IMG/VR virus record: IMGVR_UViG_3300037400_003073
Reading direction: 5' to 3' (one strand)
DNA from: an uncultured virus (IMG/VR IMGVR_UViG_3300037400_003073)
Lineage: Duplodnaviria; Heunggongvirae; Uroviricota; Caudoviricetes
DNA: 64,000 nucleotides
The notes beneath the pieces were generated by a model. The model had not been told where the DNA came from, searched no databases, and saw nothing but the letters and a program-made list of their open reading frames with translations. Every line of letters begins with the position of its first letter. The first letter of the stretch is position 1. Made by a program: the position numbers and the translations under genes. Below, piece after piece: positions 3,663 through 30,133 of the stretch.

Positions 3663-3682
3663 AATATAACTAAACCACCGGT
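3663..3682 (-). promoter_or_regulatory. ACCGG-N9-TATATT promoter motif
   Basis: accggtggtttagttatatt; motif recurs about 10 times at gene boundaries. Confidence 0.7.
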
Positions 3683-3684
3683 GG

Positions 3685-4311
3685 TTACGTCGGGGAGCTT
3701 TCGGGGTCCCTGGCTTCCACGCGGGATTTGCCGCTTCCGTCCATCGTGACGCGGAACTCACGGTCGGGTACGATCGAAGTGCCCGCCACGTCCGCGACCA
3801 TTATAACCTGGATGCCCAGGCGATGCGAAATAAGCGTCAAGACCTCGCCCAGTCTTTGCCGTGCAGTCCCGCGTATTCTCGGGAACGGCTCGTCGAGCAG
3901 CAGCACCTTGTCGAACTTCGACATCGTGAGACAACACACACGGAGCGCAAGGGAAATCACATCGACCACGCCGCCGCCGCTGCTGTTTAGCGGGTTCATA
4001 CGGGCGCCGTCCTTGTCGAGCCACATGTCAAGCTCGGTACGTCCGCGACGCGCTACAAATTCAGTTTTAAAAGTGTAGGCGCCGGGGAACACGGCGTCGA
4101 GGGCGGTCTGTACGACATCCTCGATACGGACCCTCAGCTGGTCCTGTGTATCGCGTGCCGCCTTTTGGACGACAAGGACCAGTTCTTCCACCGAGGTCTT
4201 GCGGTCGTTGAGCCGGGACACGTCGCGCTCGGCGCTTTCGAGGGCTACCCGTGCGGCTTCACGGCGGCCCATCCAGGAGGCTGCCTTGACTGTCAATTCC
4301 TGGGCGTCCAT
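3685..4311 (-). CDS. SbcC/Rad50-like ABC ATPase, C-terminal half
   Basis: Coiled coil, SSGGG signature, LLLDEP Walker B; no Walker A. Confidence 0.85.
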   Translation of the reverse strand: MDAQELTVKAASWMGRREAARVALESAERDVSRLNDRKTSVEELVLVVQKAARDTQDQLRVRIEDVVQTALDAVFPGAYTFKTEFVARRGRTELDMWLDKDGARMNPLNSSGGGVVDVISLALRVCCLTMSKFDKVLLLDEPFPRIRGTARQRLGEVLTLISHRLGIQVIMVADVAGTSIVPDREFRVTMDGSGKSRVEARDPESSPT

Positions 4312-4313
4312 GA

Positions 4314-4565
4314 CTATCCCCCGATGCTGTTTTCGGCCTGGGCGATAAGTTCCCGCGCCTCGTCAAGCGTCGCGTTGTAACTGCTCGAAAGTTTTTCGAC
4401 GTCGCCTTCGATCTTCTTTACGATTTCGCGTATCTTTTCGGGGTCGTCGGTGCCAAATTCCGCGAGCCATTTCTTTTGAATGCTCTCGACAACACCCTGG
4501 GCTTTCGCCTTCTCGCCCTTGAGGGCATCCACGCGCTTGATCAGCTGTTCCACTTCGGTAGCCAT
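4314..4565 (-). CDS. Small coiled-coil protein (possibly part of split SbcC)
   Basis: Heptad pattern; directly upstream of the SbcC C-half. Confidence 0.6.
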   Translation of the reverse strand: MATEVEQLIKRVDALKGEKAKAQGVVESIQKKWLAEFGTDDPEKIREIVKKIEGDVEKLSSSYNATLDEARELIAQAENSIGG

Positions 4566-4620
4566 TGGGCCTCCTTGAATTTAAAAGTTTTTGCCGTCCA
4601 TAAGGTACAAGAACGACCGG

Positions 4621-5007
4621 TCATTCGATAGGGACGCGTTCGCCCCAGGTAATCACAAAATAAATAGTATAGGGGTCTCCGCCCCATTCCGGTTTTCCGA
4701 AATCGTAGCGCACCCGGGGTGTCTTGAAACGCACACGGGGAGAATCGGGGCGGTACCCGTTGCGGAACTCCACGAAATCGTAGCCCCGCATATCCTGGTA
4801 CATGTTATGCGATACGCCGCCGATAATGTTTCCGCCGTATAGCAGTTTGTAAGAACCGGGGAGCTGGTCGTCACGCTGGACTATAAGCCGGGCCTGCCAG
4901 TATGGCTTGTCCTCGCGGTATTCCTCCAGCTTTACGCCGTCCCGGATCATGGAGAACCACGGCTCCCGAACAACGAGGTGCAGAACGGTTCCGGGCTTCC
5001 TGGGCAT
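4621..5007 (-). CDS. ASCH-domain protein
   Basis: LHLVVREPWFSMIRDGVKLEEYR matches the ASCH GxKxxExR motif. Confidence 0.75.
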   Translation of the reverse strand: MPRKPGTVLHLVVREPWFSMIRDGVKLEEYREDKPYWQARLIVQRDDQLPGSYKLLYGGNIIGGVSHNMYQDMRGYDFVEFRNGYRPDSPRVRFKTPRVRYDFGKPEWGGDPYTIYFVITWGERVPIE

Positions 5008-5636: not shown

Positions 5637-5645
5637 TTCGGTCTC

Positions 5646-5903
5646 CTAGTTGTTGCGGGTGTGAATGATTAAAGGCTCGCCGGTCCCGATACGTGCAAGC
5701 CTTACGGCGTCGAGAAGCCTGTCGTCGTAGTCTTCGGGAGTGTCCCCGAAGTGTACGCGACCCAGGTCATAGTCATACACCGCGACGACGTTCGAACCGT
5801 TGAAGATGTAACCGACAAGGGCGGCGTCCCATTCCTTCGGGAGCGCCACGACTTGCAGGCCTGTTTCCTTTGAAACTTTCGAGAGGATGCGGCGTTCGAT
5901 CAT
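5646..5903 (-). CDS. Hypothetical protein
   Basis: Coupled ORF in operon. Confidence 0.55.
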   Translation of the reverse strand: MIERRILSKVSKETGLQVVALPKEWDAALVGYIFNGSNVVAVYDYDLGRVHFGDTPEDYDDRLLDAVRLARIGTGEPLIIHTRNN

Positions 5904-7245: not shown

Positions 7246-7282
7246 GAACCTCCTTGGGGTTCGTATAGGTCAATGACCGGAG

Positions 7283-7495
7283 CTATTCGTCACCGGGTAG
7301 CAGTTCGAAAACGCACTCGGTACAGAGCCACGACCCTGGTTCTTCAAGATCGACGCCCCAACCGTCACGCAACAGAACCGCAGCGAGTGTCTTGTCCGAG
7401 GCAATTCCGCGCCACTCCCGACCGCATTTAGAGCACGTGGCCACCATTTCCCGGAGCTTGGGCTGCCTGGGAGGTCTAATCCTGGGGCGTGCCAT
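7283..7495 (-). CDS. Small CxxC...CxxC zinc-binding protein
   Basis: MARPR start coupled to upstream stop; CSKC and CTEC. Confidence 0.55.
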   Translation of the reverse strand: MARPRIRPPRQPKLREMVATCSKCGREWRGIASDKTLAAVLLRDGWGVDLEEPGSWLCTECVFELLPGDE

Positions 7496-8187
7496 TAGAA
7501 CGCCTCCGCGTGGGCGGGTATGAGCAGGCAGGGCAACTTGTCCTGCGTGTATAGCTTGAGTGCGCTTTTCAAGGTTTCGAACGCGCGGCAGGTGCGCTTC
7601 CAGGACCATCCCAGCTTGAGGTAGCGGCGCATGTATATCTTTTTTGGCGTCAAGTAGTTGTGGGCCTTGTTGTATGCCCTTGTCTTCGATGTGTCGGGCT
7701 TGACGTAGAAAAGGTTGTTCCCGAAGTCGCGGAAAATTTGGAGCGCGTCACCCTGGAGCAGTTCAAGGTAGGGTCGCATTTCCGGGGGATATTCCCCATC
7801 GATACCCAGGGAGCTGGAATACTCGTCGACTAGACCGGTAGAGAGAGCGGCGGCGAACGCTCCCGCGCTAGGGTCGCAGCAATCTTCCGTTTCCCCGTCT
7901 ATCGTATAGCTGCGGACGGGAGCGGGTCCACCGTGAATGCAAAGGTTCGGCCCGTGACATGCCTTTGTAATGATCTCGGACAAGGACTGGAGACATTCCG
8001 CCAGCCAGGTTCCGAAACTGGCCCTGCTCGGATGGTCCGAATCGTAGCTCTTGCAGGCCTCACAGAACACGAGACCTGCCTGCAGGTATAGGTCGTCGAT
8101 AAGTTCGGGAAACTGGACGGAATAGCGGGCCACCGCTTTTTCGATGACCCCGGCATATTTAAAGTAGAGTTCGTCGGTCGCTTCCAT
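7495..8187 (-). CDS. Sigma-factor-like protein (region 2-like N-terminus)
   Basis: DDLYLQAGLVFCEACKSYD...ASFGTW resembles sigma70 region 2. Confidence 0.6.
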   Translation of the reverse strand: MEATDELYFKYAGVIEKAVARYSVQFPELIDDLYLQAGLVFCEACKSYDSDHPSRASFGTWLAECLQSLSEIITKACHGPNLCIHGGPAPVRSYTIDGETEDCCDPSAGAFAAALSTGLVDEYSSSLGIDGEYPPEMRPYLELLQGDALQIFRDFGNNLFYVKPDTSKTRAYNKAHNYLTPKKIYMRRYLKLGWSWKRTCRAFETLKSALKLYTQDKLPCLLIPAHAEAF

Positions 8188-8336: not shown

Positions 8337-8433
8337 GGTATCCTCTGTTTGCAGGGTTGTTGTTTCTTACGTGTATAAATATAAAATAAGTTCCCAGGAC
8401 GGGAACTTACATTTTGCTTACATGTTACTTACA
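8337..8433 (-). promoter_or_regulatory. Class I triple-TGTAAG promoter (copy 2)
   Basis: cttaca at 8406, 8417, 8428; near-identical to 431-530. Confidence 0.75.
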
Positions 8434-9799
8434 TTTCGCAAGCGTGCATAGGTCGCCCGCAACAGGGGCACACCTTGCCTTCCAGGGACACGAGCGCGGA
8501 GCCCAGGGCACTCGATGCGTTCTCTAGGGCCTCCTGGGCCTTTTCATAACCAGATAGGCCCGAAGTCAAAGCCTCCAGCGTACCGCGGCACCCGGATAGC
8601 GCGGACGCTACACGGGAGAGACGAACGAGCTTGCCGTCGATGAGCTCGAAGTCCAGGTGCGCAAATTTCGCGAGGTCCATATATTCCCGGAGCCGGTTCT
8701 CTTCGATTATCCGATTCCCGCGGTCGATTTCGTCGCGGGTGTGGGAGAGTTTCGCAAGGATCGCGTCGAGCCTGTCAACGTCGATGGCGGCAACCTTACG
8801 AGCGGCAACGTAATCGGTCCGGTCCGTGGCGTATCGCTTGAGCATGTTTTCCAGGCGGTCCCGTTCGGAACCTGTGCGGGAAACTTCCTCGAGAAGCGAA
8901 CCGGCGCGCCGCAACTTGTCAAGACCCGCGGCGTTCCGTTTTTCCGTGTGGTATTCCCGGAACGACTGGCTGAGCTTGGTGCTTGTCGTAATGGCGCGGT
9001 CCAGTCGTCTTGATAGGTCATCCAGGCTTTCGAGGGTGTCGTCGATGCGGTCCAGGGCCGCCGCGAGCGATCCGTTGCGGCGGTTCTCGGTTTCCCATTG
9101 CTCCAGTTCATCGCGTAGCCGCTGTTCCTTGGCTTCCAGCACACGGAGGTCGCCTTCCATCTTTGCCGCGTCGGTTGCTAGTTCCTGGAGACGCGGGACC
9201 CAGTCTAGCGCGGAAAGTTTCTCGGCGCACTTGTCCTGGGCGCCTATGGCGTACTTGAGTTCGGAAACGGTATCGCGGTGCATCCCATTCACTGTGGCAA
9301 GTGCCTCGTCGATAACTTGCAGGTCGACCAGGCTGTTCACGTATCGGGCGGCTTCTCCGGGCGTCGCGGAAATAAGGAATGGCGGGTCCATCTGTTGCTG
9401 GATGTTTACCGCCCCGATGTTTAGGGTTTCCGCGATTTCCTTCGGGACGTCGGTTCTCAACGCTTCGAAGTCACGGGAACATCCTACGGGGCTCCCGTCG
9501 TCTTCCGTGTCCAGGTGATAGCCGTTGTATGCCTGGGAGCGTTCGCGTGTAACGACGCCGCCTTCGGAATCCAGGCGGACCAGGCAACGGCCCTTGACGT
9601 TACCCTTGTCGTCCTTGATCCAGTTGGAGAGGTGGGCGGTGCCCTGTGGGCCGTTGGTGATACACCACAGGATAGCGCGCATGACCGCGGACTTGCCACA
9701 GTCGGAATCGCCTACCAGCGCGTTGATGCGCGGATGGAGCTGGAGCCGTGTCTTTTCATGGCTTTGAAAATTTGCGATATCTACTTTAAAAATACTCAT
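8429..9799 (-). CDS. SbcC/Rad50-like ATPase, N-terminal half ending in zinc hook
   Basis: NFQSH, GDSDCGKS Walker A, Q-loop, long coiled coil, terminal CPCCG. Confidence 0.88.
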   Translation of the reverse strand: MSIFKVDIANFQSHEKTRLQLHPRINALVGDSDCGKSAVMRAILWCITNGPQGTAHLSNWIKDDKGNVKGRCLVRLDSEGGVVTRERSQAYNGYHLDTEDDGSPVGCSRDFEALRTDVPKEIAETLNIGAVNIQQQMDPPFLISATPGEAARYVNSLVDLQVIDEALATVNGMHRDTVSELKYAIGAQDKCAEKLSALDWVPRLQELATDAAKMEGDLRVLEAKEQRLRDELEQWETENRRNGSLAAALDRIDDTLESLDDLSRRLDRAITTSTKLSQSFREYHTEKRNAAGLDKLRRAGSLLEEVSRTGSERDRLENMLKRYATDRTDYVAARKVAAIDVDRLDAILAKLSHTRDEIDRGNRIIEENRLREYMDLAKFAHLDFELIDGKLVRLSRVASALSGCRGTLEALTSGLSGYEKAQEALENASSALGSALVSLEGKVCPCCGRPMHACEM

Positions 9800-11578: not shown

Positions 11579-11752
11579 TTAAGCCTCCAAAGTTTTCAAT
11601 ATTAGAACGGGCATCATTGCTGTCGTGGCGACGGCCCACGCCACTTCCTCGGGCGTGAGCTCACCCAAGGCGATCATTTCCCGCGCCGTTTCTGTAGGGC
11701 GTTCCGCCTTCGGTATGCGCTTTAGTTTTTCCCACAACTTCAAGGTGTCCAT
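11579..11752 (-). CDS. Small hypothetical protein
   Basis: MDTLKLW start with AGGAG RBS. Confidence 0.45.
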   Translation of the reverse strand: MDTLKLWEKLKRIPKAERPTETAREMIALGELTPEEVAWAVATTAMMPVLILKTLEA

Positions 11753-13020: not shown

Positions 13021-13098
13021 GTATGTTTTTACCTCGTTTTCTATATAGGAAAAGCACCGGTCGCCCGGTGCCTTGTGTCTTGGCTCTTAACGGAGAAA

Positions 13099-14828: not shown

Positions 14829-14877
14829 TTAAATACCTCTTTTAGTTCTTCCGTCATATAGACAACCGACCGGTAGG

Positions 14878-16028: not shown

Positions 16029-16416
16029 TTTGGTTTTCCTGTTCTTTCTGCTTACGTTTAAGGCGTAACAATTTCTTGTAATGTCCGTAGGATAGCTCCA
16101 TACGCAGGTACGTGTTGTTACGGGCTACCCGTTGAAGGTACGCGGCACCGAGAGCCGTCCACTTGTAAAATTTTGATTTCTTGTCATATTTTAGAAGCCC
16201 CAGCTGTACGAACTTCGGGTGTTCCTTTGCGGTAGCCTTCGAATCTTTTTTAACGTAGCTTCCACCATACGGCAACCATGAATACTTGCCGTTACGCTGA
16301 ACCCGTCCTTGGATAGTTGCAGGGTTGCATAAAGGACCTGCGCACAAAATAAGTTCTTTTATTTCGGGGATGGTAAGTTCAATCCCGTAAAATTTCAATC
16401 TTGGAGTTTTAGCCAT
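16015..16416 (-). CDS. Basic hypothetical protein (AT-richer)
   Basis: AAGGA RBS; immediately downstream of the RNA cluster. Confidence 0.6.
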   Translation of the reverse strand: MAKTPRLKFYGIELTIPEIKELILCAGPLCNPATIQGRVQRNGKYSWLPYGGSYVKKDSKATAKEHPKFVQLGLLKYDKKSKFYKWTALGAAYLQRVARNNTYLRMELSYGHYKKLLRLKRKQKEQENQNAKQ

Positions 16417-16429
16417 TTAGATTCCTTAA

Positions 16430-16791
16430 AATGGTATGGGCGCGGTTACGGGTACTCCTTTCTAACCCTTGGCCGCACCCTTGTTGTAGGCCTCCAACGT
16501 TAGCCACCGCACCAGGCCTCGGTGGTGCGGTCCCGTCCGGTATTTCGGACCCGGCGTCGGCCCCTATTCTCTAGGCGGGCAACACTCCCACGGCGTTCAC
16601 CTACAACAACTGCAAGGAACCACACTGGTTGCGCAATTCCAGGAGCTGTAATTTGTACGCGGAACTTTGCGGGCCTTGCTTTTCGAGAATGGAGTCGAAC
16701 AAAGAAGGCTAGAAAAGGACTCCTTAACGTTGCCGGGCACCTGGGTGTCTATTGATAGGGGAGCAATAAGGAGAAAATCCCAGGTCCCGGC
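16430..16791 (-). ncRNA. Candidate structured RNA(s) downstream of the tRNA
   Basis: No credible ORF; stems 16438-16480, 16481-16490/16600-16609 (multibranch), 16611-16679, 16732-16791. Confidence 0.5.
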
Positions 16792-16794
16792 GTA

Positions 16795-16867
16795 TTGCAA
16801 CAGCGGGGCTCGAACCCGCAGCCTCGTCCTTCGGAGGGACGCGCTCTATCCATTGAGCTATGCCACA
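16795..16867 (-). tRNA. tRNA-Arg(CCG), CCA not encoded
   Basis: Cloverleaf: TGTGGCA/TGTTGCA acceptor, GCTC/GAGC D-stem, CGTCC-CTCCGAA-GGACG, GCGGG-TTCGAGC-CCCGC. Confidence 0.9.
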
Positions 16868-16927
16868 AGGGTCGCGTGGTTCGCAAGTCGAGGATACCAC
16901 TCACACCACTTGCGCCCCCGCGTTGTT

Positions 16928-17014
16928 AGTATAGGCAACCGACCGGTCTTCTTGTGGGGTTAGCTCGGCGGCGCCGTGCCGGTTGCCTATTCCCAATATA
17001 GAAACAACCCCGGT
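16928..17014 (-). promoter_or_regulatory. Two tandem ACCGG-N9-TATAYT promoters upstream of the tRNA/RNA cluster
   Basis: accggtcggttgcctatact (16928-16947) and accggggttgtttctatatt (16995-17014). Confidence 0.7.
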
Positions 17015-17169: not shown

Positions 17170-19908
17170 CTATGATGCCTTGAATACTTCGGGCCAGTCG
17201 GGTTTAACGATTCCATTTGGGCCCAGTTCGCCCACGTCCTTCATGTCCGCCCAGGTAGCGCCGACCGGTGACATTTCCGCCTCGATCACGAGCGGGACGC
17301 AAATCCAGGGGAACGCACGCGAGACGCGCTCCACGCCGTTCTGATATACGATGGCGGCGACCTGGTTTTCTTCACCTTCGCGGACAAGGGCAATAATGGC
17401 GTCGTGAATCTGTCCAATTATGCAGGACTGCATCCCCCGTTCCTTAGCCAGCTCGTTTATGCGCTGGACATCCCACGAGAGAGCTCGGAGCAGAATGTGG
17501 AATGCCGACCCCTGGATGCACCGGTTGGTCGCTTCGGTGTAGCCCATAGGACCACGGCACCGGAACCCCGTGTAGCTTTCGACGTACCCGAACGTTTGGT
17601 ACCGGTCCCATTCCTTTTTGCGCCATTGGTTATACACTTTAAAGCGTTGGTTCCAAAAGATGTCGTCGGCCTTTTCGACGTGGGCCTCCCATTTCTTGAA
17701 GGTATTGATGCCGCAATCTTTCGCCAGGTGTTCCTTCGTGTATGGCGGCATGTTCGCCCACATGCGGGTGGCGCATGACTTGTAGTTCGCACCATAGAAC
17801 GAGGCGAACACGTACCCGGACTTGATGGAGGAGCGTTCTTCCTTCGTCAGTATATCGGGGGTCCTTATGTACATATCGCAGGCCGTGTCGCGGTGCATGT
17901 CCGATTCCGGGTTCTGTAGGTAGTGTATCATTTGCGGGTCGTGGTGATAGCTCGCGGACACCATGACTTCCAGGCTCTTGTAGTCCATTTCCATGTAGCG
18001 GAACCCCGGCGGCGCGACGAACAGGTTCCGCAACATTTTTTTAACTTGCTTGTCACGCTTCGGGATGTTTTGAAAGTTCGGGCTGTCAGCGCTCGATCTG
18101 TAGGTACGCGGTCCCGCCTGGCTCTTTTCTCCAGTCGTGGTGCCGCTCTCGGAACCCGTCGAGAGGTTGAAGAAAGTACGGATGAGGTGGCAGCCCTTTT
18201 CCTCGTCCCAAACGGCCTCGCGCTGGTAGGATTCCAGGAACGTGTCGCGGATTTTCGCCCAGTGTCTCATTTCGAGCACATCCCGACACAACTGGGTCCC
18301 CAGTTTGGTGAGCGTGTCTTCCTTCACGTCTTGGGATTCCGCGGGCGGTTTCAGCTTGCACACGTCATAAAGAACCTCGCAGAGCTGCTTGTTTGAATTT
18401 GGATTGAAGTCCTCACCGGGGTGTTTCTGTTGCCATTTCTTGACATCGGGGGATGCCATTATCTTTGCGACCGCGGCGCCGAGCTTGACCCGCAGTTCTT
18501 CCTTGAGTTGCCTGGCCTTCTCAAGATCAATCGGGAGTCCTTCGGACTGGACGCGGGCCAGCGTATCCATACCTTCCATAAAGAACCGGAAGGCGCCCTC
18601 CATGCCAGAAAGTTGCCGCACCTGGGCGTCACGAATAAATAGCGTATAGAGTGAATCCTCCGAGCAATAATAGACCACATCGCCGCGCGGGATTCCCTCC
18701 CCGGAGTGTAAAAGGTTAAATGCGTTGCACCCGTACTTTTCCGCCTCTCCCTGGACCAGGGTGCGGATGTACTTGTCCGCCTTCGTGTCGTACCCCAGGA
18801 CCCCGAGTTCGCAATACGTGTGGAGCTTGAGCCCCACCTTTTGGTTGTTGTCGATAACATGGGCCGCCAGGCAAGTGTCCCAGCTCCAGTTGGTAGGCCA
18901 GTCGGTTCTCCCGTTCCCGATACCTCCGCGGAACCTGGTCCAGCACGCTTCGAAACTGGCATTGTGCGCCACGATCCCGATGCGGGGATGGTGTGTCAGT
19001 TCGTGCCATGCCTTCACAAGCCGTGGGTGGTTTCCGTCCCAAAGGAACCCGAACGCGTGATACTTGCCGTCCATGCGGTAAGCGACGGACGCAGCGTATA
19101 TGCGGTGCCCTTCTCTGTGAGGCTTGAGCCCGGTTGTCTCGTAGTCGATAGCCACGTCGACGACGCCGTCGGGGGCTGCCCCGAGAGCATTTACGGCGGC
19201 CCAGTACATGACGTCCTCGATCCATTCGGCGGCAACGTCGGGGTCTTCCGTCACCCGTATATCGTCGGGTATTTCGGGAAGCGGCTTGTCCTTCAATGCC
19301 CAGGCGTTGCGGACGTGCTGGGCTAGATACATGGCGGGGCAACTGTCCCGGCGTTGCCACGATATAAACTCGGGAGAATACGTCGGGCAAATCCAGGCGT
19401 TGTACTTCCGGTCGGGGATGCGTTTTCCGAAAAGGTCGCTCGGTTGGGTGTTCTTGATTCTACCCGCAAGCCGGTCCCAAATAAGGGCCTTCGTAGGTAT
19501 TACCCCCATTGGTATGATAACACGGGGCTGCAGCTCCCGGATTAGGCGGTCCAGGCGTTCGGAACAGCACGCGGGGTTTTTCGGTTCCTTACCTTCGGGA
19601 ACCGGGCACGGAAGGGCGTACCCTACCCAGGCATGGTCGAGGATACGCTTCGGTACGCCGCGGCACCCGGCCTGGTCGAACAGCACGTCGTAGAGTTCCA
19701 GCGAAAATACGTGGGCGGCGTCGTTCCCCTCGCCCCGTCTCGGGTAGTCGGAGAGGATCAAGACACGGTCCGCCCCCTTGCCCGCGAACCCCGACAACTT
19801 GCCGCTGCCGTCAAGTCCACAGGCCTTGCAACCTGTTGGCGGCGCCGCCCGTTTTGTTCGCGTCTTGTTGGCAAGCAGCATTTCCTGGCTAATATCGAAA
19901 AACCCCAT
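17170..19908 (-). CDS. polA: Family A DNA polymerase with N-terminal UDG-like domain and 3'-5' exonuclease
   Basis: IDYETTG, AHNASFE, PNFQNIP, MDYKSLE, RSSIKSGYVFASFYG, QIHDA; N-terminal CxxC...LQPRVIIPMG...PTYSP. Confidence 0.92.
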   Translation of the reverse strand: MGFFDISQEMLLANKTRTKRAAPPTGCKACGLDGSGKLSGFAGKGADRVLILSDYPRRGEGNDAAHVFSLELYDVLFDQAGCRGVPKRILDHAWVGYALPCPVPEGKEPKNPACCSERLDRLIRELQPRVIIPMGVIPTKALIWDRLAGRIKNTQPSDLFGKRIPDRKYNAWICPTYSPEFISWQRRDSCPAMYLAQHVRNAWALKDKPLPEIPDDIRVTEDPDVAAEWIEDVMYWAAVNALGAAPDGVVDVAIDYETTGLKPHREGHRIYAASVAYRMDGKYHAFGFLWDGNHPRLVKAWHELTHHPRIGIVAHNASFEACWTRFRGGIGNGRTDWPTNWSWDTCLAAHVIDNNQKVGLKLHTYCELGVLGYDTKADKYIRTLVQGEAEKYGCNAFNLLHSGEGIPRGDVVYYCSEDSLYTLFIRDAQVRQLSGMEGAFRFFMEGMDTLARVQSEGLPIDLEKARQLKEELRVKLGAAVAKIMASPDVKKWQQKHPGEDFNPNSNKQLCEVLYDVCKLKPPAESQDVKEDTLTKLGTQLCRDVLEMRHWAKIRDTFLESYQREAVWDEEKGCHLIRTFFNLSTGSESGTTTGEKSQAGPRTYRSSADSPNFQNIPKRDKQVKKMLRNLFVAPPGFRYMEMDYKSLEVMVSASYHHDPQMIHYLQNPESDMHRDTACDMYIRTPDILTKEERSSIKSGYVFASFYGANYKSCATRMWANMPPYTKEHLAKDCGINTFKKWEAHVEKADDIFWNQRFKVYNQWRKKEWDRYQTFGYVESYTGFRCRGPMGYTEATNRCIQGSAFHILLRALSWDVQRINELAKERGMQSCIIGQIHDAIIALVREGEENQVAAIVYQNGVERVSRAFPWICVPLVIEAEMSPVGATWADMKDVGELGPNGIVKPDWPEVFKAS

Positions 19909-19964: not shown

Positions 19965-21062
19965 TTATCTGTTTGCCTTTGGCACGTGAAGGCTTACCAT
20001 GTGGATGTATTCGCCCGCCTTGAAGACAAGGGAATCGGAGCGTGCACCCGGTACAAGCGAGAAGTCGACCGACTTGTTGACCGCGTCTTCCAAGAATTCC
20101 ACGTTGACCCATACGCTTACGTTGTTCGGGTCGTTGCTTGGTTTCGTGTCCCACGGGATTTCTTCGGTGGCTTCGCTCCCGTCCTTTTCGGCATGGAGAA
20201 CCAGCGCGTCGTTTGTAAACGTCATTTCAATGAGAGCTGCGTTGTTGCCGTCAAGACCGGACGCAAGAACCGCCACGCGGGCCACCGCTTCCTTGATGTC
20301 CGCAGGGAGCTTGCCTGTAAGCAACGGCGCCGTTGAAAGTGCACGGTCCACCGACTCGATAATTTTAGTAAACGGATAAACGCTGTGGTCCTTGCGCTGT
20401 GCGCTAAAAATAGTGCCGTCGGGGTAATGCAGGTGGAACCACGGACCGACAACCGCATAGCCGTCGGGGTCGCCGCACTTGAGGGCGTCTTGGATAACAG
20501 AATCGTCGAGCAGGAAACGTTCCACGGGTTCGGACAACTTCGTGAAGCTGATGCGCTTGGAATCCGACGAAATCACGGCGGCGGCATCCTGGTATTCGAC
20601 CGTAGCGACGCCCCGGATGGTGACGATGTTGCTCGGGATGCACGACACACGGAGAGCCGTCATGAACTTGTCCGGGACCTGCTTGAACTCTACGGAACTG
20701 TTGCCGACCGTCGCTACGTAGGCCTTGATCTTCGAAGGGTCGAGAAGCGGGAGCGTTGCGCGTGTTCTTCCGTTCTTTACCTTGATTTTGTTGTTTGCAA
20801 TTTCGAAAGATACCTGGTCGCCATTCATACGCGAGACCAGTTTAAAGAACTCCTGGCCCTTGACGGAAAATTCCTGACCCTGGGTATCGCATGGGGCGGT
20901 TACGGACACCACCCCGTTGCAGGAGTGGACGTTCGCGCCGTCGAAAAGTAGCTGCTCGGCACCGTTGTTGCTGCTTATCCCGTTAAGTTGTACGCCCTTT
21001 TCAACGCCGGGTATTACTTTCTTGATAGCTGCGAGAAGCGTCTCGCGTTCAATCGTTATCAT
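19965..21062 (-). CDS. dnaN: DNA polymerase III beta-clamp-like protein
   Basis: 365 aa; MITIERETLLAAI start, SSDSKRI, YP, three-domain pattern; next to polA. Confidence 0.7.
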   Translation of the reverse strand: MITIERETLLAAIKKVIPGVEKGVQLNGISSNNGAEQLLFDGANVHSCNGVVSVTAPCDTQGQEFSVKGQEFFKLVSRMNGDQVSFEIANNKIKVKNGRTRATLPLLDPSKIKAYVATVGNSSVEFKQVPDKFMTALRVSCIPSNIVTIRGVATVEYQDAAAVISSDSKRISFTKLSEPVERFLLDDSVIQDALKCGDPDGYAVVGPWFHLHYPDGTIFSAQRKDHSVYPFTKIIESVDRALSTAPLLTGKLPADIKEAVARVAVLASGLDGNNAALIEMTFTNDALVLHAEKDGSEATEEIPWDTKPSNDPNNVSVWVNVEFLEDAVNKSVDFSLVPGARSDSLVFKAGEYIHMVSLHVPKANR

Positions 21063-21964
21063 TTAGACAACTCCTTTATTGCGGCGGCGCGGTTCGCGTT
21101 CGCCTGGTTTGTTAGGTTCTGTTGGATTTCCTGTTCACGTTCGGACAAGCTGATTGTTTCGCAATAGGTGTCCCCGCTTTCAAGTACATGGGCAATGCAC
21201 CGGTCGTTCGATAGCTTGTCCGCGTCTTCCTTTTCTTTCTTGAAGCGCTCCACGGCACTGTCCGCAAGGATTAGCCCGTTCCCGAAAATATCCTGGCCGC
21301 AGTCCATCTTGCGTATGTATGCGCATTCGTCCTTGTAGATGTGGAACTCATGACCCTCGGGGAAATCACCACGGGCCAGGGTCCCGGTGCGTGCCATGTT
21401 TAGGATGGACGGGGGCCATTCCAGCTTTCGGACAACGCGGGACGGTTTCGCCCCGGTGTTCGCGTCGTCGATGGCATGGTACAGGTCGGTCGAGCAAATC
21501 AAGCGGGCGTCGCTAGGAAGGTTGGTGCAGAAACACGTAGCCACCTTTGCGCCGTTCGTGTAGGTGATCTGTTTACCCGCGACGATATAGGTCACGTCGG
21601 CCCCTATAACAAGGCCCGACAAGTACGGTCCGAAAATAAAGAACCGGACGCCCTTCGACAAGTACCAGCGCACAATATGCGCATAGAGGGAGAACGGCGG
21701 ATTGTCGAGCACCAGGCACCCTTCGGGGTATTCCTCGTTCTCGAAGTTCCTGCCGGGATAGAACGGGCGTATAATTTGTGTGTCCTGGGGCAAGTCCCAG
21801 CGCTTGAACACCCAATCCTTGATAGCCTTATAGACCGGCTCCGGCGTATAGCAGTCGTCGGTCGTCTTTTTCGGTTCGAACTTTTCTTCGAACTTCTTGT
21901 ACTCTGTAAACTTGTTTAATTTGTGGTAGGGTACGTTCGGTACGTCAAAGAACCCATCGGCCAT
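21059..21964 (-). CDS. Putative N6-adenine DNA methyltransferase
   Basis: DDCYTP and VLDNPPFS motifs. Confidence 0.65.
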   Translation of the reverse strand: MADGFFDVPNVPYHKLNKFTEYKKFEEKFEPKKTTDDCYTPEPVYKAIKDWVFKRWDLPQDTQIIRPFYPGRNFENEEYPEGCLVLDNPPFSLYAHIVRWYLSKGVRFFIFGPYLSGLVIGADVTYIVAGKQITYTNGAKVATCFCTNLPSDARLICSTDLYHAIDDANTGAKPSRVVRKLEWPPSILNMARTGTLARGDFPEGHEFHIYKDECAYIRKMDCGQDIFGNGLILADSAVERFKKEKEDADKLSNDRCIAHVLESGDTYCETISLSEREQEIQQNLTNQANANRAAAIKELSK

Positions 21965-22002
21965 TCGTGTTACCTCCAGCGGTTAAATATAGGGAATACC
22001 GG

Positions 22003-23454
22003 TCATCGGCGGGTGCGACGCCTCCCGGTGTATTTCGGTTGGTTTTCTTCGGCGGAATACGAGACCTCGCCCATATCGACACAGGATAGGCGTGCACATT
22101 CCAGGTAGGGGCGCCCGATCGCCAGGCAGTTCGTACACACCACCTCGTCAAATATAACACCGCCGTCGCGGGTAGTAGAGCACGAGATTCGGTATATGCC
22201 CCGCGCCTTTTCCTGTTCGGTTTGGTTGATCGCGACCAGTTTCGTCACGTGCGCGACTTTGCGGCGGTCTTCGGACACGTTCTTGGCGGATGCGTCCTTT
22301 TCGCCGTCCATCGTCTCGGTACCTGTATGCGACGCCGTGACGACCAGGCATCCCAGTTCAAGGCCCAGGCCTCTCAATGCTTGCCAGGTCATGTTTATCT
22401 GATGGCGGACCTCCACGCGGGAGTTCCCGTGGTCCATGATGTCCGCGGAATCTACAACCACGACGTCCGGAACAAAATTCTCGTATGTGCCCATTGTCGT
22501 GATTTCGGAGCGCAAGCCGCGGACGGACAAGGTGCCGGTAGGGAATGCCCGGAGCTCAAGGCGACCATGCCTTGACACACGGCGAACGCTCTCCTGGATA
22601 GCTTCGATGCCCTCGAAGGAAGTTTCCACCCGTTCTGTCTTTACTTCGCGGTCAAGGATAGACCAACGGCCCTCCCCGGTTTCCTCAAGTACAGGCCACG
22701 GAGCGCTTTCCCCGTAACGGGAGCACCCGTTTATCATTTGCCAAAAACGGCGCACCATCTGTTTCTTCGTCATTTCGAGAGACACGAAAAGCACGCGCTT
22801 TCCCTTGAGTGCGGCGGCAAACGCGGTGGCCATGAGCCACCAGGTCTTGCCGCGTTTCGGAGGCGCTATGTAAGCTATAAAGTCGTCCGTGGTGAACGGG
22901 CCCAATACGTGCCCCAGTTCTCCGGGGAATTGGAATTCGATCTCCTCCGTGTCGTCGAAGGCTTGCGCGATTTGTCTTGCGTCGCTAAAGATGGATACGG
23001 ACTCCTTGACCCGGACGTTCGGGCGCTGGAACTCCGCGACGGCAAGGAACCCCGCGGACGTGTCATGGTTGGAGAGAGCCCGACCTATGCGTTCATGGAG
23101 CATGGCCAGCGCCCGTTCCTGGAAATATTCGACCGCCATGTCTTCCGCCTGCTTGTCATTCGTCGGGAGCCATTCATCCGAACAGGTCTCGAGAAACACC
23201 GCGACAAGTTCCGCGTCGGATTCCCGCAGCTCGCGTTTACGGCGCATGTAAATATCCTTTATCGCTTTTCCCGGGGCGTCGCCGGTCCGGTCGAAAAATT
23301 CCCACACCCAGGTAGCGACGGCGCGGCTCATGGTGCTTTCGAACATGGCGGGGTCCCCCACTGTCCGTATCTTGGATAGCAGCGGGGTGGACATTATAAG
23401 GTTTGAGAGCACGCGGCGCTCGATGGACAAGTCTATTTTTTCACGTGTAATCAT
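22003..23454 (-). CDS. DnaB-like replicative helicase
   Basis: APPKRGKT, VSLEM, VVVDSAD, VTASH. Confidence 0.85.
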   Translation of the reverse strand: MITREKIDLSIERRVLSNLIMSTPLLSKIRTVGDPAMFESTMSRAVATWVWEFFDRTGDAPGKAIKDIYMRRKRELRESDAELVAVFLETCSDEWLPTNDKQAEDMAVEYFQERALAMLHERIGRALSNHDTSAGFLAVAEFQRPNVRVKESVSIFSDARQIAQAFDDTEEIEFQFPGELGHVLGPFTTDDFIAYIAPPKRGKTWWLMATAFAAALKGKRVLFVSLEMTKKQMVRRFWQMINGCSRYGESAPWPVLEETGEGRWSILDREVKTERVETSFEGIEAIQESVRRVSRHGRLELRAFPTGTLSVRGLRSEITTMGTYENFVPDVVVVDSADIMDHGNSRVEVRHQINMTWQALRGLGLELGCLVVTASHTGTETMDGEKDASAKNVSEDRRKVAHVTKLVAINQTEQEKARGIYRISCSTTRDGGVIFDEVVCTNCLAIGRPYLECARLSCVDMGEVSYSAEENQPKYTGRRRTRR

Positions 23455-25628
23455 TTAAAATCCCTTGTATGAATGACGACACCGCGACGTTCGAGAAGTT
23501 CGCTCAACAGGTCCACGTCGGCGGCTTCCTTGCCGTCAAGGACTCCGTCGAGCATCTTTGCGCGGTCGTCCAGCACTTCCACGGCGTCCATATCCACGGT
23601 ACCCGGCGCCACCAGGTAATACGAGGTCACCGAGCTCTTTTGCCCGGACCGGTGCAAACGATCCTCCGCCTGTCGGTGTGCGTTCGGAGTGTGCGAAAAT
23701 TCAGCGAACGCCACATCGGAACAGACATCCTGGAACCCGTCGATGCCGACTCCGCCGGACTGGATGTTCGCCACCATTACGCGGCAGTCCACGTCTTCGA
23801 TAAACCGCCTGCGGGCATCCTCGCGTTCCGCCTGGTTCATTCCACCGTATATTTTCGCGGGATGGAAATCCCGGAGCGTCGAGAAAAGCAAATCGACCAC
23901 ATCGCGATGCCATGCAAAAAGGAGCAGCTTTCGACCGGAGTCCAGGAAGTCACGGACCCACTGGAGCAGGTTCTTTTCCTTGAGGGCATAGGCGGTACGC
24001 AAGAGACCCGCGACACGTTCCCGCATTTCCTTTTCGCTAGTGCCGTCCTGGGTGAAGGCGACGGCTTCCGCCATCTTGTAGTCCTGGAACGCCTTCGCGT
24101 CAACTTCGAGGGGGACGACCTCCATGACCTTGCGCGGGAGGTCCGTCATGACTTCGGCCTTTGTTCGTCGCAACATGCACCCGACAAACAGGGCGTGGAG
24201 TTCCTTCACGTTCGAGGCTCCGTTGAAAGTGAGCGAGAACCCGTTGTGCTTCGGTGCGCAATACCGGTACAGGTAGGAACGCTGGCTCTTGAATCTCTCG
24301 GGGTCCATTATGTTTAGAAGCGGCCAAAACTGGGCGGGCTTGCTCATGGCGGGCGTTCCGCTCATGCCTATCACGTCGGGAATTTTACGGGCCAGGCGCA
24401 TGAAGGCCCGGGAACGTTGCGAGCTAGGGTTTCCGATGGCTTGAACCTCGTCGCCTATTAGCAGCTTGAAGCCCAGGCCGGTCAATTCTTCCTCCCAGTC
24501 GCTCAAGATGTCCCAGTTGATAATGTAGGACACACCGGGCTCGAGCATGTAGGGCGTCTTGCCCTGGAGCACGGCGACGCGTGGCTTGTAGCCAGGGACG
24601 GACCCGACCCAGCGGTAATACGCGGACTGCCATTGGAGCTTTGTCGGGGCGTTCACGACGATAAGGGCGGGGAACCTGTTCGCGTAAACGAGCCACGACA
24701 AGGCCTCGACCGTCTTTCCGCAATTATGGACGACGACCCCGTCCGCCAGGAAGTTCGCATGGTTCAGCACCTTTACGTCGTAGGTGTGGCGTGTGCCTAC
24801 CCGTTCAATAGATACAGGGCGTACCGCCTTGGGTGTGTTCGTGGAGTTAATATTGCATACTACAGCACTGCCGCCTAAACGTTCCGCCGGAACCCAACCA
24901 CAGGATTCTGTGAGAACCTGGTGGTCGGGGGTGCATACCAACGTGCGCCCATCCTCGAACGTGACGCGGACGCATTCCCGTTCCCCGCTGTCGATCACGT
25001 CCACGACCTCCCCGAGCCTAAATACGCCGTCCTGGTGGATGCAGCGTATGAACCACGGGCGTTCTTGCAAGGTGTAAAGTTTGCGCGGGTCGTCGCTGTG
25101 GAACTTGCGGAAGAACGCCGCTAGGGTCATTCTCTTGGCGGCGCCGTGCCGGTTTACCTGTACCATGGCTTCACCGTCGATGCATCCCATTTCGTCGCCC
25201 AGGGCTACGCGCCCGCGCCGGATCGTCGCGAACTTGAGGAAGTCCAACTGGTACGAACGCAGGCCCGGTATCATGGGGGCGGTAGGGTCGAGCTGAACCG
25301 CGGCGATGCGCTTTCGCTGTTCTTCAACGGGGTCCACTTCGGGTACTTTTTCCGCCGAGGGCGGTTGGGCTTCGTACTTCCTGGGAGCAGGGAACCCCGC
25401 AACCTGGAGCCATTCGAGCATTTCAGCGCTCGCGGGGACCTCCCAGCGCTTGGTTGCCGCGTTGTACTTGCGGCGGGGCAGATTTCGGACCGCAGTGAGA
25501 ACTTTCTGCCAGTCCGCGCTCTCGTGTGCCACCCAGGCTATCGAAATCGTCTTGCCGCTTTCTTTGTATTCCGCGGAATACCGGACGCCAGGGACGGGCG
25601 AAAATGGTTGTAATTTTTGCGTAAACAT
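23451..25628 (-). CDS. SNF2/HARP-like helicase containing an intein
   Basis: LRSYQ, DEMG|CGKT, DEVQ, SGTP, LRRTK, QAEDRLHRSGQ. Confidence 0.9.
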   Translation of the reverse strand: MFTQKLQPFSPVPGVRYSAEYKESGKTISIAWVAHESADWQKVLTAVRNLPRRKYNAATKRWEVPASAEMLEWLQVAGFPAPRKYEAQPPSAEKVPEVDPVEEQRKRIAAVQLDPTAPMIPGLRSYQLDFLKFATIRRGRVALGDEMGCIDGEAMVQVNRHGAAKRMTLAAFFRKFHSDDPRKLYTLQERPWFIRCIHQDGVFRLGEVVDVIDSGERECVRVTFEDGRTLVCTPDHQVLTESCGWVPAERLGGSAVVCNINSTNTPKAVRPVSIERVGTRHTYDVKVLNHANFLADGVVVHNCGKTVEALSWLVYANRFPALIVVNAPTKLQWQSAYYRWVGSVPGYKPRVAVLQGKTPYMLEPGVSYIINWDILSDWEEELTGLGFKLLIGDEVQAIGNPSSQRSRAFMRLARKIPDVIGMSGTPAMSKPAQFWPLLNIMDPERFKSQRSYLYRYCAPKHNGFSLTFNGASNVKELHALFVGCMLRRTKAEVMTDLPRKVMEVVPLEVDAKAFQDYKMAEAVAFTQDGTSEKEMRERVAGLLRTAYALKEKNLLQWVRDFLDSGRKLLLFAWHRDVVDLLFSTLRDFHPAKIYGGMNQAEREDARRRFIEDVDCRVMVANIQSGGVGIDGFQDVCSDVAFAEFSHTPNAHRQAEDRLHRSGQKSSVTSYYLVAPGTVDMDAVEVLDDRAKMLDGVLDGKEAADVDLLSELLERRGVVIHTRDFK
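24723..25184 (-). mobile_element. Mini-intein (154 aa) in Walker A of the helicase
   Basis: C1 (CIDGE), block B CTPDH, block F TYDV, terminal VVHN followed by +1 Cys; no LAGLIDADG domain. Confidence 0.92.
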
Positions 25629-27054: not shown

Positions 27055-27141
27055 TATTTACGCATACGACCGGTACGTTGCCGGAAATAAACAAAATTTT
27101 ACACGCCACGGGCCCCGAAGTACCGGCGGTGTTGCTATATT
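27055..27141. promoter_or_regulatory. Back-to-back ACCGG-N9 promoters (27055-27074 minus; 27122-27141 plus)
   Basis: accggtcgtatgcgtaaata and accggcggtgttgctatatt. Confidence 0.65.
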
Positions 27142-27147: not shown

Positions 27148-27765
27148 TAACCGGCGTCCCAAAGCAAGCGGACACCGGAGCACCCGGACCGGTAGATGGT
27201 AGCCCGGCAAGACGGTGCAAGGCGGAACCATTTCACAGCCCGCCGAACAGGGGCCCAGGAGCCCGGATGTAGAGCATACCGGTAGAGCCCCGCGCAAGGA
27301 TCGACGTCCGAGCGTGCATATAGTTGGGCTAGCTTGATTAGCACCGGAGGTGGCCTATCTTCAAACAGAGGGCGTCGCCCATACAGCCCCGGCATTGCGA
27401 CCGGGGTGGTCAGCGCAATAGATAGCAAAAGGTGGCAAGCCCGGTGCCGCGTGTGAAGACGCACGTCAGCCGGGAGCAGCATGGGCCTTCACCAGGTCGA
27501 GTCTTGCGACCAGTGGGAACACACGGCGCCCATATCCCGCCAAATGCCCGCGAGGGCAGTAGTGTGGCGCATAGCAGTCCCCCCGACCGGTTGACCTGGG
27601 GGGTTGGGAGCAATCCCAGTAAGCGCCGCTCCGGTCTAGTGCCGGTATAAAAGCAGAAAAAGTCGTACGCCGATGTCTAGTGCTTCGAACTACTCCCTTC
27701 CCTGGGGGTAGTTTGGCTCTTGTCCCCACCTCCGTCTAGGTGCTGCTATCGCAGCAATAGCTAGG
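27148..27765 (+). ncRNA. Candidate large (~600 nt) structured RNA
   Basis: Begins right after a promoter motif; no credible ORF; GNRA hairpins TGCCC-GCGA-GGGCA and TGGGA-GCAA-TCCCA plus many other stems. Confidence 0.55.
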
Positions 27766-27847
27766 TAGGAATAGGTGTATAACGCGCGTGTGTGCGCGCA
27801 CGTACGCGTATGCGCGCGTAAGGGAGGATTCCATCCAGGAGCAAAAA

Positions 27848-28074
27848 TGCCATTGAGGCCAATTTACATCCCCGACGGGTTCCACCGCGGCTCCGTCACG
27901 TTCCGCGCTTCCTGGGAATACTTCGACGAGCCGTGCGAACCCCCGCCTCCGCCCGACTACATCCCGTCGGGCCCTTTTTCGACTCCGGGAGTGGTGGGAC
28001 GCCCAGGCGGAGTTCTACGGGTGCCCGGTTCCCCCGTTTCCTGGGTGATCCTTCGGGACCGGCCCGCGTTTTGA
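27848..28074 (+). CDS. Small proline-rich hypothetical protein
   Basis: AGGAG RBS before MPLRPIYIP; C-terminus uncertain. Confidence 0.35.
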
Positions 28075-28181
28075 CGGATTGGGGGCTCCGTGGGCCTGTT
28101 TTCCTCCAGGCGGTGCAACTACACGGTCGGAGAAAACAGGGGCCCGTGGGGGCCCTTTTGGCAAAATTCCGGGATTTTCAC

Positions 28182-29564
28182 AAAAAGCGTGGGCAGGAAG
28201 ATGCCGTCCCTTTAGGGCGGCGTAGGAATGCCCACGAGAACACTTTGGGAACACTTTATTCCAATATTGCACCTAAAATGCTTGATTTGCAATTCGAAAT
28301 GTTCTAAACTTATAATTGAACACGGGTGAAATTCAGATGGCAGAACTGACCTACAATGCAGAGCTACGGTTCCGTACCAAGGAAGACCACGAATACTGGT
28401 CTAGTCTTCTTGCATTGTCCAGGAAAGCCTACAACAAGTGTGCGAACATCCTTGATTCCAACAATGTCCATATAGACTTGCGGTCAGTCCACAAGGCAGT
28501 GTATGATATTCTCCGTGAGGAATATCCAACCATTCCAAGCCAAGCCGTAATCAAGATATACAAGGAGTGCATATCGGCATTCCGTTCCATCAAGAGCAAC
28601 GGCCATAAGAAGCACAAAATACCAGAAAAGCATGGTCTATCAATGAGGCTGGACAAGCGGCTGTATTCTAAGTTCAATCGCAAGAGCATTGCATTGTGCT
28701 CCGGCAAGGCTTGCAAAAGAGCCGTAGCGGATATTGTCGGTTATGACAGGCTGGAGTCGCTGTTTGTGCAATATACCACAGCCGACCCGTTGATTTTCAT
28801 GCGAAATGGGCGTTTCTTCCTTTCGATAACATTCAATGTTCCCGATGTACCTCTATATGATGACAACTGCATCGGATTGGATATGGGCGAACGCCGTTTC
28901 GCAATTTCCTCCGATGGAATCATGTTCCACGACAAGGAATACAACAAGCGTAGACGCAAACTACGCTACTTGAAGCGTTGCTTGCAAAAGAAAGGAACTA
29001 AGTCTGCACGTAGGCATTCTCGTAAGCTATCCATCAAGGAACAAAACCAGTCTACCGATATGTGCCGAAAGATTGCCAATGCGGTAATCCAAAGCACGTC
29101 AGCTTCCATTATCGTAATGGAAGATTTAAGCGGAATTAAGCAGAAGACTTCAAAGTCTAAAGAGGGATTCAAACGGAAATCCCATAATCGTAGGATGTGC
29201 CAAATTCCATTCTACAAGTTCAAGCAAATCTTGTCATACAAGACACCGCTGTACGGTAAGACAGTGGAAACAGTTTCTCCGTTCATGACAAGCCAAACTG
29301 ATTGCACCACGGGCAAGAAGGAAGGTACTCGCAAGAATCGTAGATTCTATTGCAAGAACGGTACTGTCCTGGATGCCGACTGGAATGCTGCAATCAACAT
29401 AGCTCGGAAGAGCAAACATCCTTCCTCGTTCAAGATGCCCCTTGATGGCGCATTGAGAACTTGGAAGGCAGGGTGTATGTCAACCACCCAATCGTACATC
29501 AGTCTCCCTGCGGTAACAACGGGAGCCGTACAAGCTCACGCCCTTCAGGGCGTGGGTAGTTGAC
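28182..29564 (+). mobile_element. Non-autonomous IS200/IS605-family element (tnpB only), inserted 3' of TCAC
   Basis: LE: GAAG at +16..19 then hairpin GCCGTCCC-TTTA-GGGCGGC; RE: CAAG, hairpin CTCACGCCC-TTCA-GGGCGTGGG, ends TGAC; composition differs from flanks. Confidence 0.9.
28337..29563 (+). CDS. tnpB: RNA-guided endonuclease TnpB
   Basis: RuvC motifs IGLDMG, VMEDL, DADWNAAINI; TSQTDC; degenerate zinc finger. Confidence 0.92.
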   Translation: MAELTYNAELRFRTKEDHEYWSSLLALSRKAYNKCANILDSNNVHIDLRSVHKAVYDILREEYPTIPSQAVIKIYKECISAFRSIKSNGHKKHKIPEKHGLSMRLDKRLYSKFNRKSIALCSGKACKRAVADIVGYDRLESLFVQYTTADPLIFMRNGRFFLSITFNVPDVPLYDDNCIGLDMGERRFAISSDGIMFHDKEYNKRRRKLRYLKRCLQKKGTKSARRHSRKLSIKEQNQSTDMCRKIANAVIQSTSASIIVMEDLSGIKQKTSKSKEGFKRKSHNRRMCQIPFYKFKQILSYKTPLYGKTVETVSPFMTSQTDCTTGKKEGTRKNRRFYCKNGTVLDADWNAAINIARKSKHPSSFKMPLDGALRTWKAGCMSTTQSYISLPAVTTGAVQAHALQGVGS

Positions 29565-29992
29565 TTCTCGCGGGCCTCCAGCTCGACAATTCTGAACCCT
29601 TCCCGGTACTTGTTTCGCTTCTCGATGCGTTCGCGGGCGGCCTCGAGTTCCTTTTCGGTGGCTTCGCGGCCATAGTAGGGAACGCCCCTGGTGCAACCGA
29701 AGCTGCGGACCGATCCAGTGGCGACCTGTCCTATTTCCGCGTCGTGTTCCTTGAAGAAACGGACGGCCTCGTCGAGCTTGCGTGCCGGGTACAGGTAGAT
29801 TCCGGTGCGGATAGTGTCTTCGGTGTTGAATCTCGGGTAGTGGAAGAACGCCAGGCGCTCGATTTCCTTTTCCGCGAGCTGGAGAGATCCGCAGCAGCTC
29901 ACCGGGCTCTCGCCCGCCATAATCGCGTGCGTGTAGGTGTGTGTCCTGCTTGTGCGTACCAGCTTGTCGGTGCCTTTGATGTAGAACTTCAT
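29480..29992 (-). CDS. Hypothetical early protein; C-terminus extended into the IS
   Basis: Behind class I promoter; native end ...AREK* when the IS is removed. Confidence 0.7.
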   Translation of the reverse strand: MKFYIKGTDKLVRTSRTHTYTHAIMAGESPVSCCGSLQLAEKEIERLAFFHYPRFNTEDTIRTGIYLYPARKLDEAVRFFKEHDAEIGQVATGSVRSFGCTRGVPYYGREATEKELEAARERIEKRNKYREGFRIVELEAREKSTTHALKGVSLYGSRCYRRETDVRLGG

Positions 29993-29995
29993 TTC

Positions 29996-30095
29996 GGTAT
30001 CCTCTTGTTTGGTGTTGGTTGTTGTTTCTTACTTGTATAAATGTAAAAAGATTTTGCCGCCATGGAACTTACAATTTACTTACATCTTGCTTATA
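29996..30095 (-). promoter_or_regulatory. Class I triple-TGTAAG promoter (copy 3)
   Basis: cttaca/cttaca/cttata at 30068, 30079, 30090. Confidence 0.7.
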
Positions 30096-30133
30096 CTTGC
30101 GCCTGTAACCGGTCCGTTCCATACAATAAGGCC

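Follow-up and report, generated by a model that had tools for sequence, protein, structure and literature searches.

The 64,000-nt stretch of DNA analyzed here (the window; IMG/VR record IMGVR_UViG_3300037400_003073, an uncultured virus of the Caudoviricetes) represents most of one myovirus genome and contains a recurrent element in which a short CCGG-type box is separated by 9 nt from a TATA-type −10 hexamer. These sites, referred to below as class II promoters, probably reflect a real promoter architecture shared across a clade of phages. Most likely they serve as middle promoters, with the phage's own sigma factor reading them in an unusually short geometry. The working consensus is (A/C)CCGG-N9-TATA, with the last base of the −10 hexamer free and no −35 box. 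An initial annotation of this DNA had given the −10 element as TATAYT, which only four sites match. The 11 sites that it listed all read as described. Among them, the 7-nt-spacer variant at 21986-22003 lies on the minus strand, where a 9-nt reading with a weak −10 element fits as well.

The strict form, ACCGG-N9-TATA, was observed eight times in the window, compared to a mean of 0.7 and a maximum of 3 in 40 fourth-order Markov simulations. When the spacer was varied from 4 to 15 nt (ACCGG-Nk-TA[TC]A), 10 matches were found at 9 nt and between 0 and 3 at each other length, and ACCGG at spacer 9 ranks first in an unbiased scan of all pairs of 5-mer and spacer. A matrix trained on the sites of a relative alone (G002) ranks five window sites first, including one that had been overlooked (1752-1771). 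The proposed placement at gene boundaries was borne out: 8 of the 10 spacer-9 matches fall between genes or at a boundary and are oriented like the gene that follows (binomial 5e-6 at p=0.14). The two exceptions are within an SbcC-like gene in the sense direction (8678-8697) and antisense (45937-45956). The box precedes replication and recombination genes, a gene for tRNA-Arg and a candidate non-coding RNA of about 600 nt. Structural genes in the window have no such box and carry A-rich TATATT elements instead; only the site at 30108 points toward the terminase genes.

The anatomy of the sites was profiled using 26 pooled examples from the window, G002 and G019, after a filter for antisense open reading frames (ORFs) dropped 7 of 33 sites, some of them real promoters. 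As first described, the box falls at −26 to −22 and not at −35: the pooled sites have no information at −52 to −33, and a canonical −35 hexamer (16-19 bp spacer) was not found, no position from −52 to −30 exceeding 0.15 bit. Beyond this, A is weakly favored at −29, positions −26 and −13 prefer A or C and G or C, respectively, and 21 of 26 sites have a purine at the predicted +1. T occurs at −7 in 11 of the 26, whereas it is near-invariant in canonical promoters. Across all lineages, 41 of 77 class II sites have this T, compared to 101 of 123 TTGAC-N17 sites (p 2e-5 for pooled sites that are not independent). We also considered CCGG as a shifted −35 element with a −10 further downstream, and rejected this because no conserved hexamer occurs there.

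The phage sigma factor and a proposed cascade

The candidate reader is a 230-aa protein encoded at 7495-8187, which the initial annotation called sigma-like. Its predicted fold supports this, combining a sigma2 domain with a modified sigma4 domain of the sigma70 family. For residues 1-78, the top seven VIA-align matches are all sigma2 domains (Z 8.0-9.5, root-mean-square deviation 2.0-2.7), the best being SigB (Z 9.5, deviation 2.0) and the others including SigE, sigma70 and FliA region 2. The linker (79-115) is modeled at low confidence. The C-terminal helix-turn-helix (HTH) domain, folded alone, reaches a predicted local distance difference test score of 80, and its top 21 VIA-align matches are all region 4 of sigma factors, at moderate Z (4.5-5.8). 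In the model this domain carries a basic insertion and a longer first HTH helix. With both a sigma2 domain and a sigma4 HTH predicted, the protein has the plan of group 4, or extracytoplasmic function-like, sigma factors. Foldseek searches with the sigma models, including the C-domain, returned nothing at E<=0.001, and the protein itself has no sequence match in Pfam, PHROGs or PDB. The Atlas places it beside a Sigma70_r2 cluster (0.96), and many of the 62 sigma relatives scanned match Pfam Sigma70_r2 (PF04542).

In the window the sigma gene lies behind a predicted early (class I) promoter. In G014, G015, G017 and G006 it is found directly behind TTG[AC][AC]A-N17 with a TATATT-type −10, and no class II box occurs directly before it in the genomes inspected. 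The sigma thus looks early throughout. The match at 8678-8697, upstream of the sigma gene, is either chance or autoregulation. A cascade from early promoter to sigma to box is plausible, given the sigma70 fold, the early-type promoter, the position of the box at replication rather than structural genes, and the lack of information at −52 to −33.

In the mechanism that we propose, a lytic myovirus uses these sites as middle promoters, and host core RNA polymerase reads them when joined to the phage sigma. The host holoenzyme would first transcribe the class I promoter at 8378-8409, leading to production of the sigma. Its sigma2 domain, as the predicted fold suggests, would then bind the core enzyme and open the DNA at TATA (−12 to −9), with T at −7 not strictly needed. 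The box at −26 to −22 would replace the −35 element and be read by the modified region-4 domain, which would lie roughly one helical turn nearer to the start than usual, possibly with the help of a small phage co-factor. The output would be replication and recombination genes, tRNA-Arg and the ~600-nt RNA. Three points here are inferred: the sites act as promoters, the sigma is what opens TATA, and the box is read by region 4. The third is the least sure. From one lineage to another the box would shift along with its reader, partly because certain lineages purge their genomes of CCGG.

Box turnover in related phages and the identity of the reader

We scanned the whole records of related phages, the larger of which reach 216 kb. 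G001, with a sigma 91% identical, has nine CCGG-N9-TATA sites and G002 (55%) has 12, the spacers being wholly different in G002. The box is ACCGG in the window, G001 and G002, and CCCGG in G019. In G003 (39%) we found ATGACCCY (box ACCCY), with ACC in the same register and before the same genes; CpG occurs at 0.07 of expectation in this 55% GC genome. The box of G005 is TTTTG (14 observed, 0.63 expected), and the boxes of the other larger relatives are GACTA (G014), TGACG (G015), ACCTA (G017) and TAGTA with GTGC (G004 and G016). Near their SSB gene, G004 and G016 also have a TGACG-N9-type site like those of G015, which hints that one box type may be giving way to another. The register is common to these lineages, with the box at −26 to about −19 followed by TATA. 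In a cross-scan each box pattern proved nearly private to its own lineage, with a single spacer peak.

Individual sites are also retained. The site before the RecA/UvsX-like gene has CCGG in G001, G002 and G019 and ACCCC in G003, and the divergent pair 27055/27122 recurs in G019. Where the window has a weak −10, before an 83-aa ORF, the G002 orthologue is preceded by a strong CCCGG-N9-TATATG. Similarly, a regular 9-nt site stands immediately before the clamp gene in G002 and G003. Because G019 was retrieved through the non-coding RNA and not through the sigma, it provided an out-of-sample test: 12 sites were found at spacer 9, compared to 1-5 at spacers 6-13 and a Markov mean of 3.0, and they stand before RecA, the 160-aa ORF and the RNA.

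CCGG occurs at 0.86-1.09 of expectation in four genomes that use a CCGG box and at 0.00-0.74 in seven genomes with other boxes, and the CCGG box is missing where the genome avoids CCGG. This depletion suggests that restriction avoidance is one driver of box turnover, and the reader of the box may be able to follow the phage's own sequence changes.

A search through the clamp loader, independent of the sigma, yielded 80 loci, 58 of which are at least 10 kb long. The top 4-mer lies at spacers 6-10 (p<=1e-4) in 15 of the 17 loci in which a close sigma occurs (about 12 distinct phages), compared to 4 of the 41 remaining loci. On inspection, the two misses show CCAG-N9 and TTATG-N9. As for the four motif-bearing loci without a close sigma, two of the records hold a distant sigma, one repeats the sites of another, and one is a 33% fragment in which no sigma was found.

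Several points weigh against reading by the phage sigma. The co-occurrence of sigma and motif is not independent evidence, because sigma, box and replication genes share one tree. The match of box patterns to lineages in the cross-scan is inflated, because tuning by eye was used for the patterns of G004 and G014-G017. No such motif was found in G006 or in eight loci with distant sigmas. Sigma identity as a whole is no guide to the box: G019 keeps CCGG at a sigma identity of 23-29%, while lineages at 37-40% changed box. The usual base-reading residues of the recognition helix (sigma70 numbering) vary among CCGG users, and the HTH residues common to them are T180, L192 and T199 only. The relaxation at −7 is uneven, since A takes this position in all three TTGAC sites of the window itself, and T is usual in the class II sites of G005 (12 of 13) and G017 (5 of 5). 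Elsewhere, the phage phiEco32 sigma gp36, which shares the two-domain plan, still contacts −35 (PMC12276001), and for phage 7-11 the predicted motif (PMC4331800) did not agree with what primer extension later mapped (PMC8948821), which calls for caution. Finally, the −10 element resembles the host-type TATATT, and a sigma4 domain at −24 is hard to place.

These last two features would suit a model in which host sigma70 reads TATA, a MotA-like or Lpa-like phage activator binds the box, and the phage sigma serves other promoters, for example late ones. We regard this, the main rival, as rather unlikely. MotA does show that a phage box can replace −35, at 12 bp from the −10 (PMC2988021), and ACCGGT is palindromic in six of the eight strict window sites. 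Yet the boxes of G002, G019, G003, G005 and G015 are not palindromic, which weakens the case for a dimeric reader. Candidate readers are a MarR-like winged HTH ORF (1713-2546) and conserved ORFs of 57, 160 and 427 aa. All of them lie behind class II promoters in the window, whereas the sigma is early. The MarR-like gene, the one candidate recognizable as DNA-binding, was found in the window, G001, G002, G003 and G019 only, yet the architecture persists in jumbo relatives. In T4, promoters that depend on the activator require an excellent sigma70 −10 (PMC2988021); here T at −7 is relaxed in most lineages. Pfam and PHROG scans of 69 window proteins gave no MotA- or AsiA-like match, with several conserved ORFs left without a family.

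Reading by an alternative sigma factor of the host is improbable. That different lineages may have different hosts speaks for it. However, at least seven boxes share one register among related phages, and their changes track each phage's own loss of CCGG or CpG, as expected of a phage-encoded reader. The sigma-54 consensus at −24/−12 is TGGCAC-N5-TTGC, and the position profile of the pooled sites does not carry its TGGC/TTGC pair. That the sites are operators, replication or packaging signals or RNA-level marks is the most improbable alternative: two matches do lie inside genes, but the strict orientation toward the next gene, the 20-27 nt to starts of RecA and the 160-aa ORF that bear ribosome-binding sites, the placement at the 5' edge of the conserved RNA and the tRNA, and the purine bias at +1 all argue otherwise.

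The initial annotation had left the choice between the sigma-like ORF and an activator open. The sigma fold, its early position and the replication targets fit the middle class that it proposed, and the comparison among phages favors the sigma, with phylogeny as a confounder. A wider, joint proposal is possible but somewhat short of probable: that in a clade of phage sigmas region 4 has been re-geared and recognizes a specific box at −26 to −19, which is nearer than the canonical −35 by one helical turn; that restriction-site avoidance repeatedly forces paired changes of box and sigma, giving at least seven mutually orthogonal pairs; and that one conserved output is an undescribed, ornate RNA of about 600 nt.

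Predicted targets and other features of the genome

Pfam and PHROG scans revealed two arms. The leftward arm (525-26912) encodes primase, exonucleases, SbcCD-like proteins, resolvase, RecA/UvsX, SSB, clamp loader, family A polymerase, clamp, DnaB and SNF2 helicase. The rightward arm, from 30472, encodes head and contractile tail proteins. No cultured phage is close, the best identities being 37% for the capsid and about 24% for the polymerase. The coordinates of the predicted features are given in Table 1.

Table 1. Predicted promoters, genes and RNAs in the window (class I, early-type promoters; class II, box-N9-TATA promoters; all assignments are predictions)
Feature	Position	Strand	Remarks
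Class II promoter, ACCGG-N9-TATAAG	1752..1771	-	99 nt before primase; same site in G001 and G002
Class II promoter	3663..3682	-	heads block of small ORF, MarR-like gene and primase
Class II promoter, weak −10 TACCTT	4602..4621	-	before 83-aa ORF
Class II promoter, TCCGG variant	7262..7281	-	before 131-aa ORF and SbcD-like gene; ACCGG in G001
Sigma70-family factor, 230 aa	7495..8187	-	sigma2, residues 1-78; linker, 79-115; sigma4-like, ~135-214
Class I promoter	8378..8409	-	TAAG repeats, inverted repeat in spacer, TATATT; precedes 47-aa ORF (start 8333) and sigma gene
Match inside SbcC-like gene	8678..8697	-	490 nt before sigma gene; kept in G001, not seen in G002
57-aa ORF, candidate co-factor	11579..11752	-	in all 11 motif-bearing genomes; near sigma gene in jumbo relatives
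Class II promoter	13042..13061	-	21 nt before RecA/UvsX-like gene
Class II promoter	14855..14874	-	26 nt before 160-aa ORF and SSB; orthologous sites in G001, G002 and G019
tRNA-Arg(CCG)	16794..16868	-	one tRNA-Arg in the window
Class II promoter	16928..16947	-	59 nt before tRNA-Arg
Second class II promoter	16995..17014	-	126 nt before tRNA-Arg
Variant site, 7 nt to TATATT or 9 nt to TATTTA	21986..22003	-	before 301-aa ORF, clamp and polymerase
Class II promoter, −10 TAAATA	27055..27074	-	at head of helicase block; faces away from 27122
Class II promoter of the large non-coding RNA	27122..27141	+	same register in G001, G002 and G019
Candidate ~600-nt structured non-coding RNA	27148..27760	+	ends approximate; behind 27122 promoter
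Second class I promoter	30040..30071	-	before 170-aa ORF
Class II promoter, −10 TACAAT	30108..30127	+	points toward terminase genes; kept in G001

Three of the sites had been described as pointing into structured non-coding regions. This holds well for 27122, where the RNA at 27148-27760 folds far better than shuffled sequences (z -5.24), moderately for 16928/16995 (z -2.55) and not for 30108 (z -0.97). The RNA is 71% identical over 575 nt in G002, is also present in G001 and lies behind the same promoter in G019; homologous loci are L101:12915-13530 and L303:13860-14450. A 14-base scan for the RNA gave 117 loci, including one true homologue. Changes on both sides of predicted pairs were seen in 24 of 176 and 12 of 60 cases, based on few sequences. 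In three lineages, no more than a few bases separate its first hairpin from the predicted start, which indirectly supports the start site predicted for 27122. No Rfam family, including ROOL, GOLLD and OLE, matched the RNA at E<=5. Contigs from RNA libraries (bovine gut) cover 27212-27496 and 16387-16709; the two runs have identical figures and are probably one data set, and as contigs they carry no information on start, strand or level. The second of these regions overlaps a non-coding stretch 3' of tRNA-Arg (16420-16790, minus strand), which is 80% conserved in G001.

The early-type promoters at 8378-8440, 30040-30100 and about 470-530 (all minus strand) have no TTGACA, and are built of TGTAAG repeats with a period of about 10 bp, an inverted repeat in the spacer and TATATT. 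The TTGACA promoters of jumbo relatives include an inverted repeat, ACCTA...TAGGT, that may be an operator. Three TTGAC-N17-TATATA promoters occur on the plus strand of the window (46-100, 58740-58800 and 59946-60000), two of them identical over about 70 bases. We propose that late structural genes use a third, A-rich TATATT class.

A solo TnpB gene of the IS200/605 type (28316-29563, plus strand) has its own TTGCAA-N18-TATAAT promoter and was not found in G001. Copies 89-94% identical occur in other gut contigs, and G005 has several TnpB genes. Two Bacteroidales bins hold TnpB relatives at 89-94%, but they do not point to the host, because one flank encodes what looks by eye like a T4-type portal and neither bin has the sigma. 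Cluster names and NCBIfam likewise pointed to no organism. The SNF2 helicase gene (23451-25628, minus strand) contains an intein-like segment (PF14890 match, residues 273-302). The family A DNA polymerase (17170-19908, minus strand) has an N-terminal UDG-like domain, and its gene adjoins those for the beta-clamp and clamp loader. Two likely DNA adenine methyltransferases (NPPF by eye; PF02384 match) are encoded at 21059-21964 (minus strand) and 61092-61925 (plus strand). GATC, CCGG, GGCC or CATG is almost wholly missing from several relatives. The 185-kb G005 also encodes a retron-like reverse transcriptase (L118:14333-15688, minus strand) and an RtcB-family ligase (L119:16300-17502, plus strand).

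Comparison with known systems

Phage sigmas that drive middle or late genes are already known; it is the geometry that is unusual here. For sigma70, the distance between sigma2 and sigma4 on RNA polymerase is thought to fix the spacer near 17 bp (PMC12276001). We found no report of this motif, or of a phage sigma with a 9-bp spacer, in a literature search that covered main texts without supplements and few subscription papers. If the proposed mechanism is correct, a specific box placed 9 bp from the −10 can be read by a sigma, which would show that promoter geometry can be reset. The series of lineages would then form a sigma by box test matrix with a possible recognition code, provide candidate orthogonal switches for synthetic circuits, and illustrate how restriction pressure can reshape a transcription code. 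The motif would also mark start points in uncultured phages, and in this case it exposed a large RNA absent from Rfam.

The phiEco32 sigma gp36 has the same two-domain plan as the protein encoded at 7495-8187. Its promoters carry AATGTA near −11.5, while positions −34 to −37 are touched by the C-domain of gp36 (PMC12276001). Here, in contrast, the conserved upstream bases are at −26 to −22 and −35 is without information. gp36 works with a co-factor, gp79 (PMC12276001). By analogy, the 57-aa ORF, which has no Atlas match and belongs to no known family, could be a gp79-like co-factor of the phage sigma. The phage 7-11 sigma gp47 likewise combines a phage sigma with a bipartite promoter, but serves late genes from a mapped promoter of normal spacing, GTAAtg-N16-aCTA (PMC8948821).

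T4 middle promoters, which work through sigma appropriation by MotA and AsiA, resemble the sites described here in driving replication genes and in having a phage box replace −35 at a fixed distance from a TATA-type −10. The T4 MotA box is centered at −30, lies 12 +/- 1 bp from the −10 and works with host sigma70 (PMC2988021). Its consensus, WWWTGCTTtA, is not seen here, where CCGG stands at 9 nt. P1 late promoters similarly carry a phage element just upstream of a sigma70-like −10. The P1 Lpa operator is an inverted repeat at −22. Lpa is an RNA-polymerase-binding late activator (PMC8198154), and differs in acting on late rather than middle genes and with host sigma70.

The predicted RNA output also has counterparts, as ROOL, GOLLD and OLE RNAs are phage-borne and near 600 nt in size. 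Like the RNA predicted here, they are highly structured (PMC12286853). With regard to the promoter itself, streptococcal SigX/ComX offers a further parallel: a sigma70-family factor whose promoters have no −35 and a feature at about −25. That feature is a T-run at variable distance (PMC6001120), whereas the box of these phages has a specific sequence, differs from one lineage to the next and keeps a fixed 9-nt spacer.

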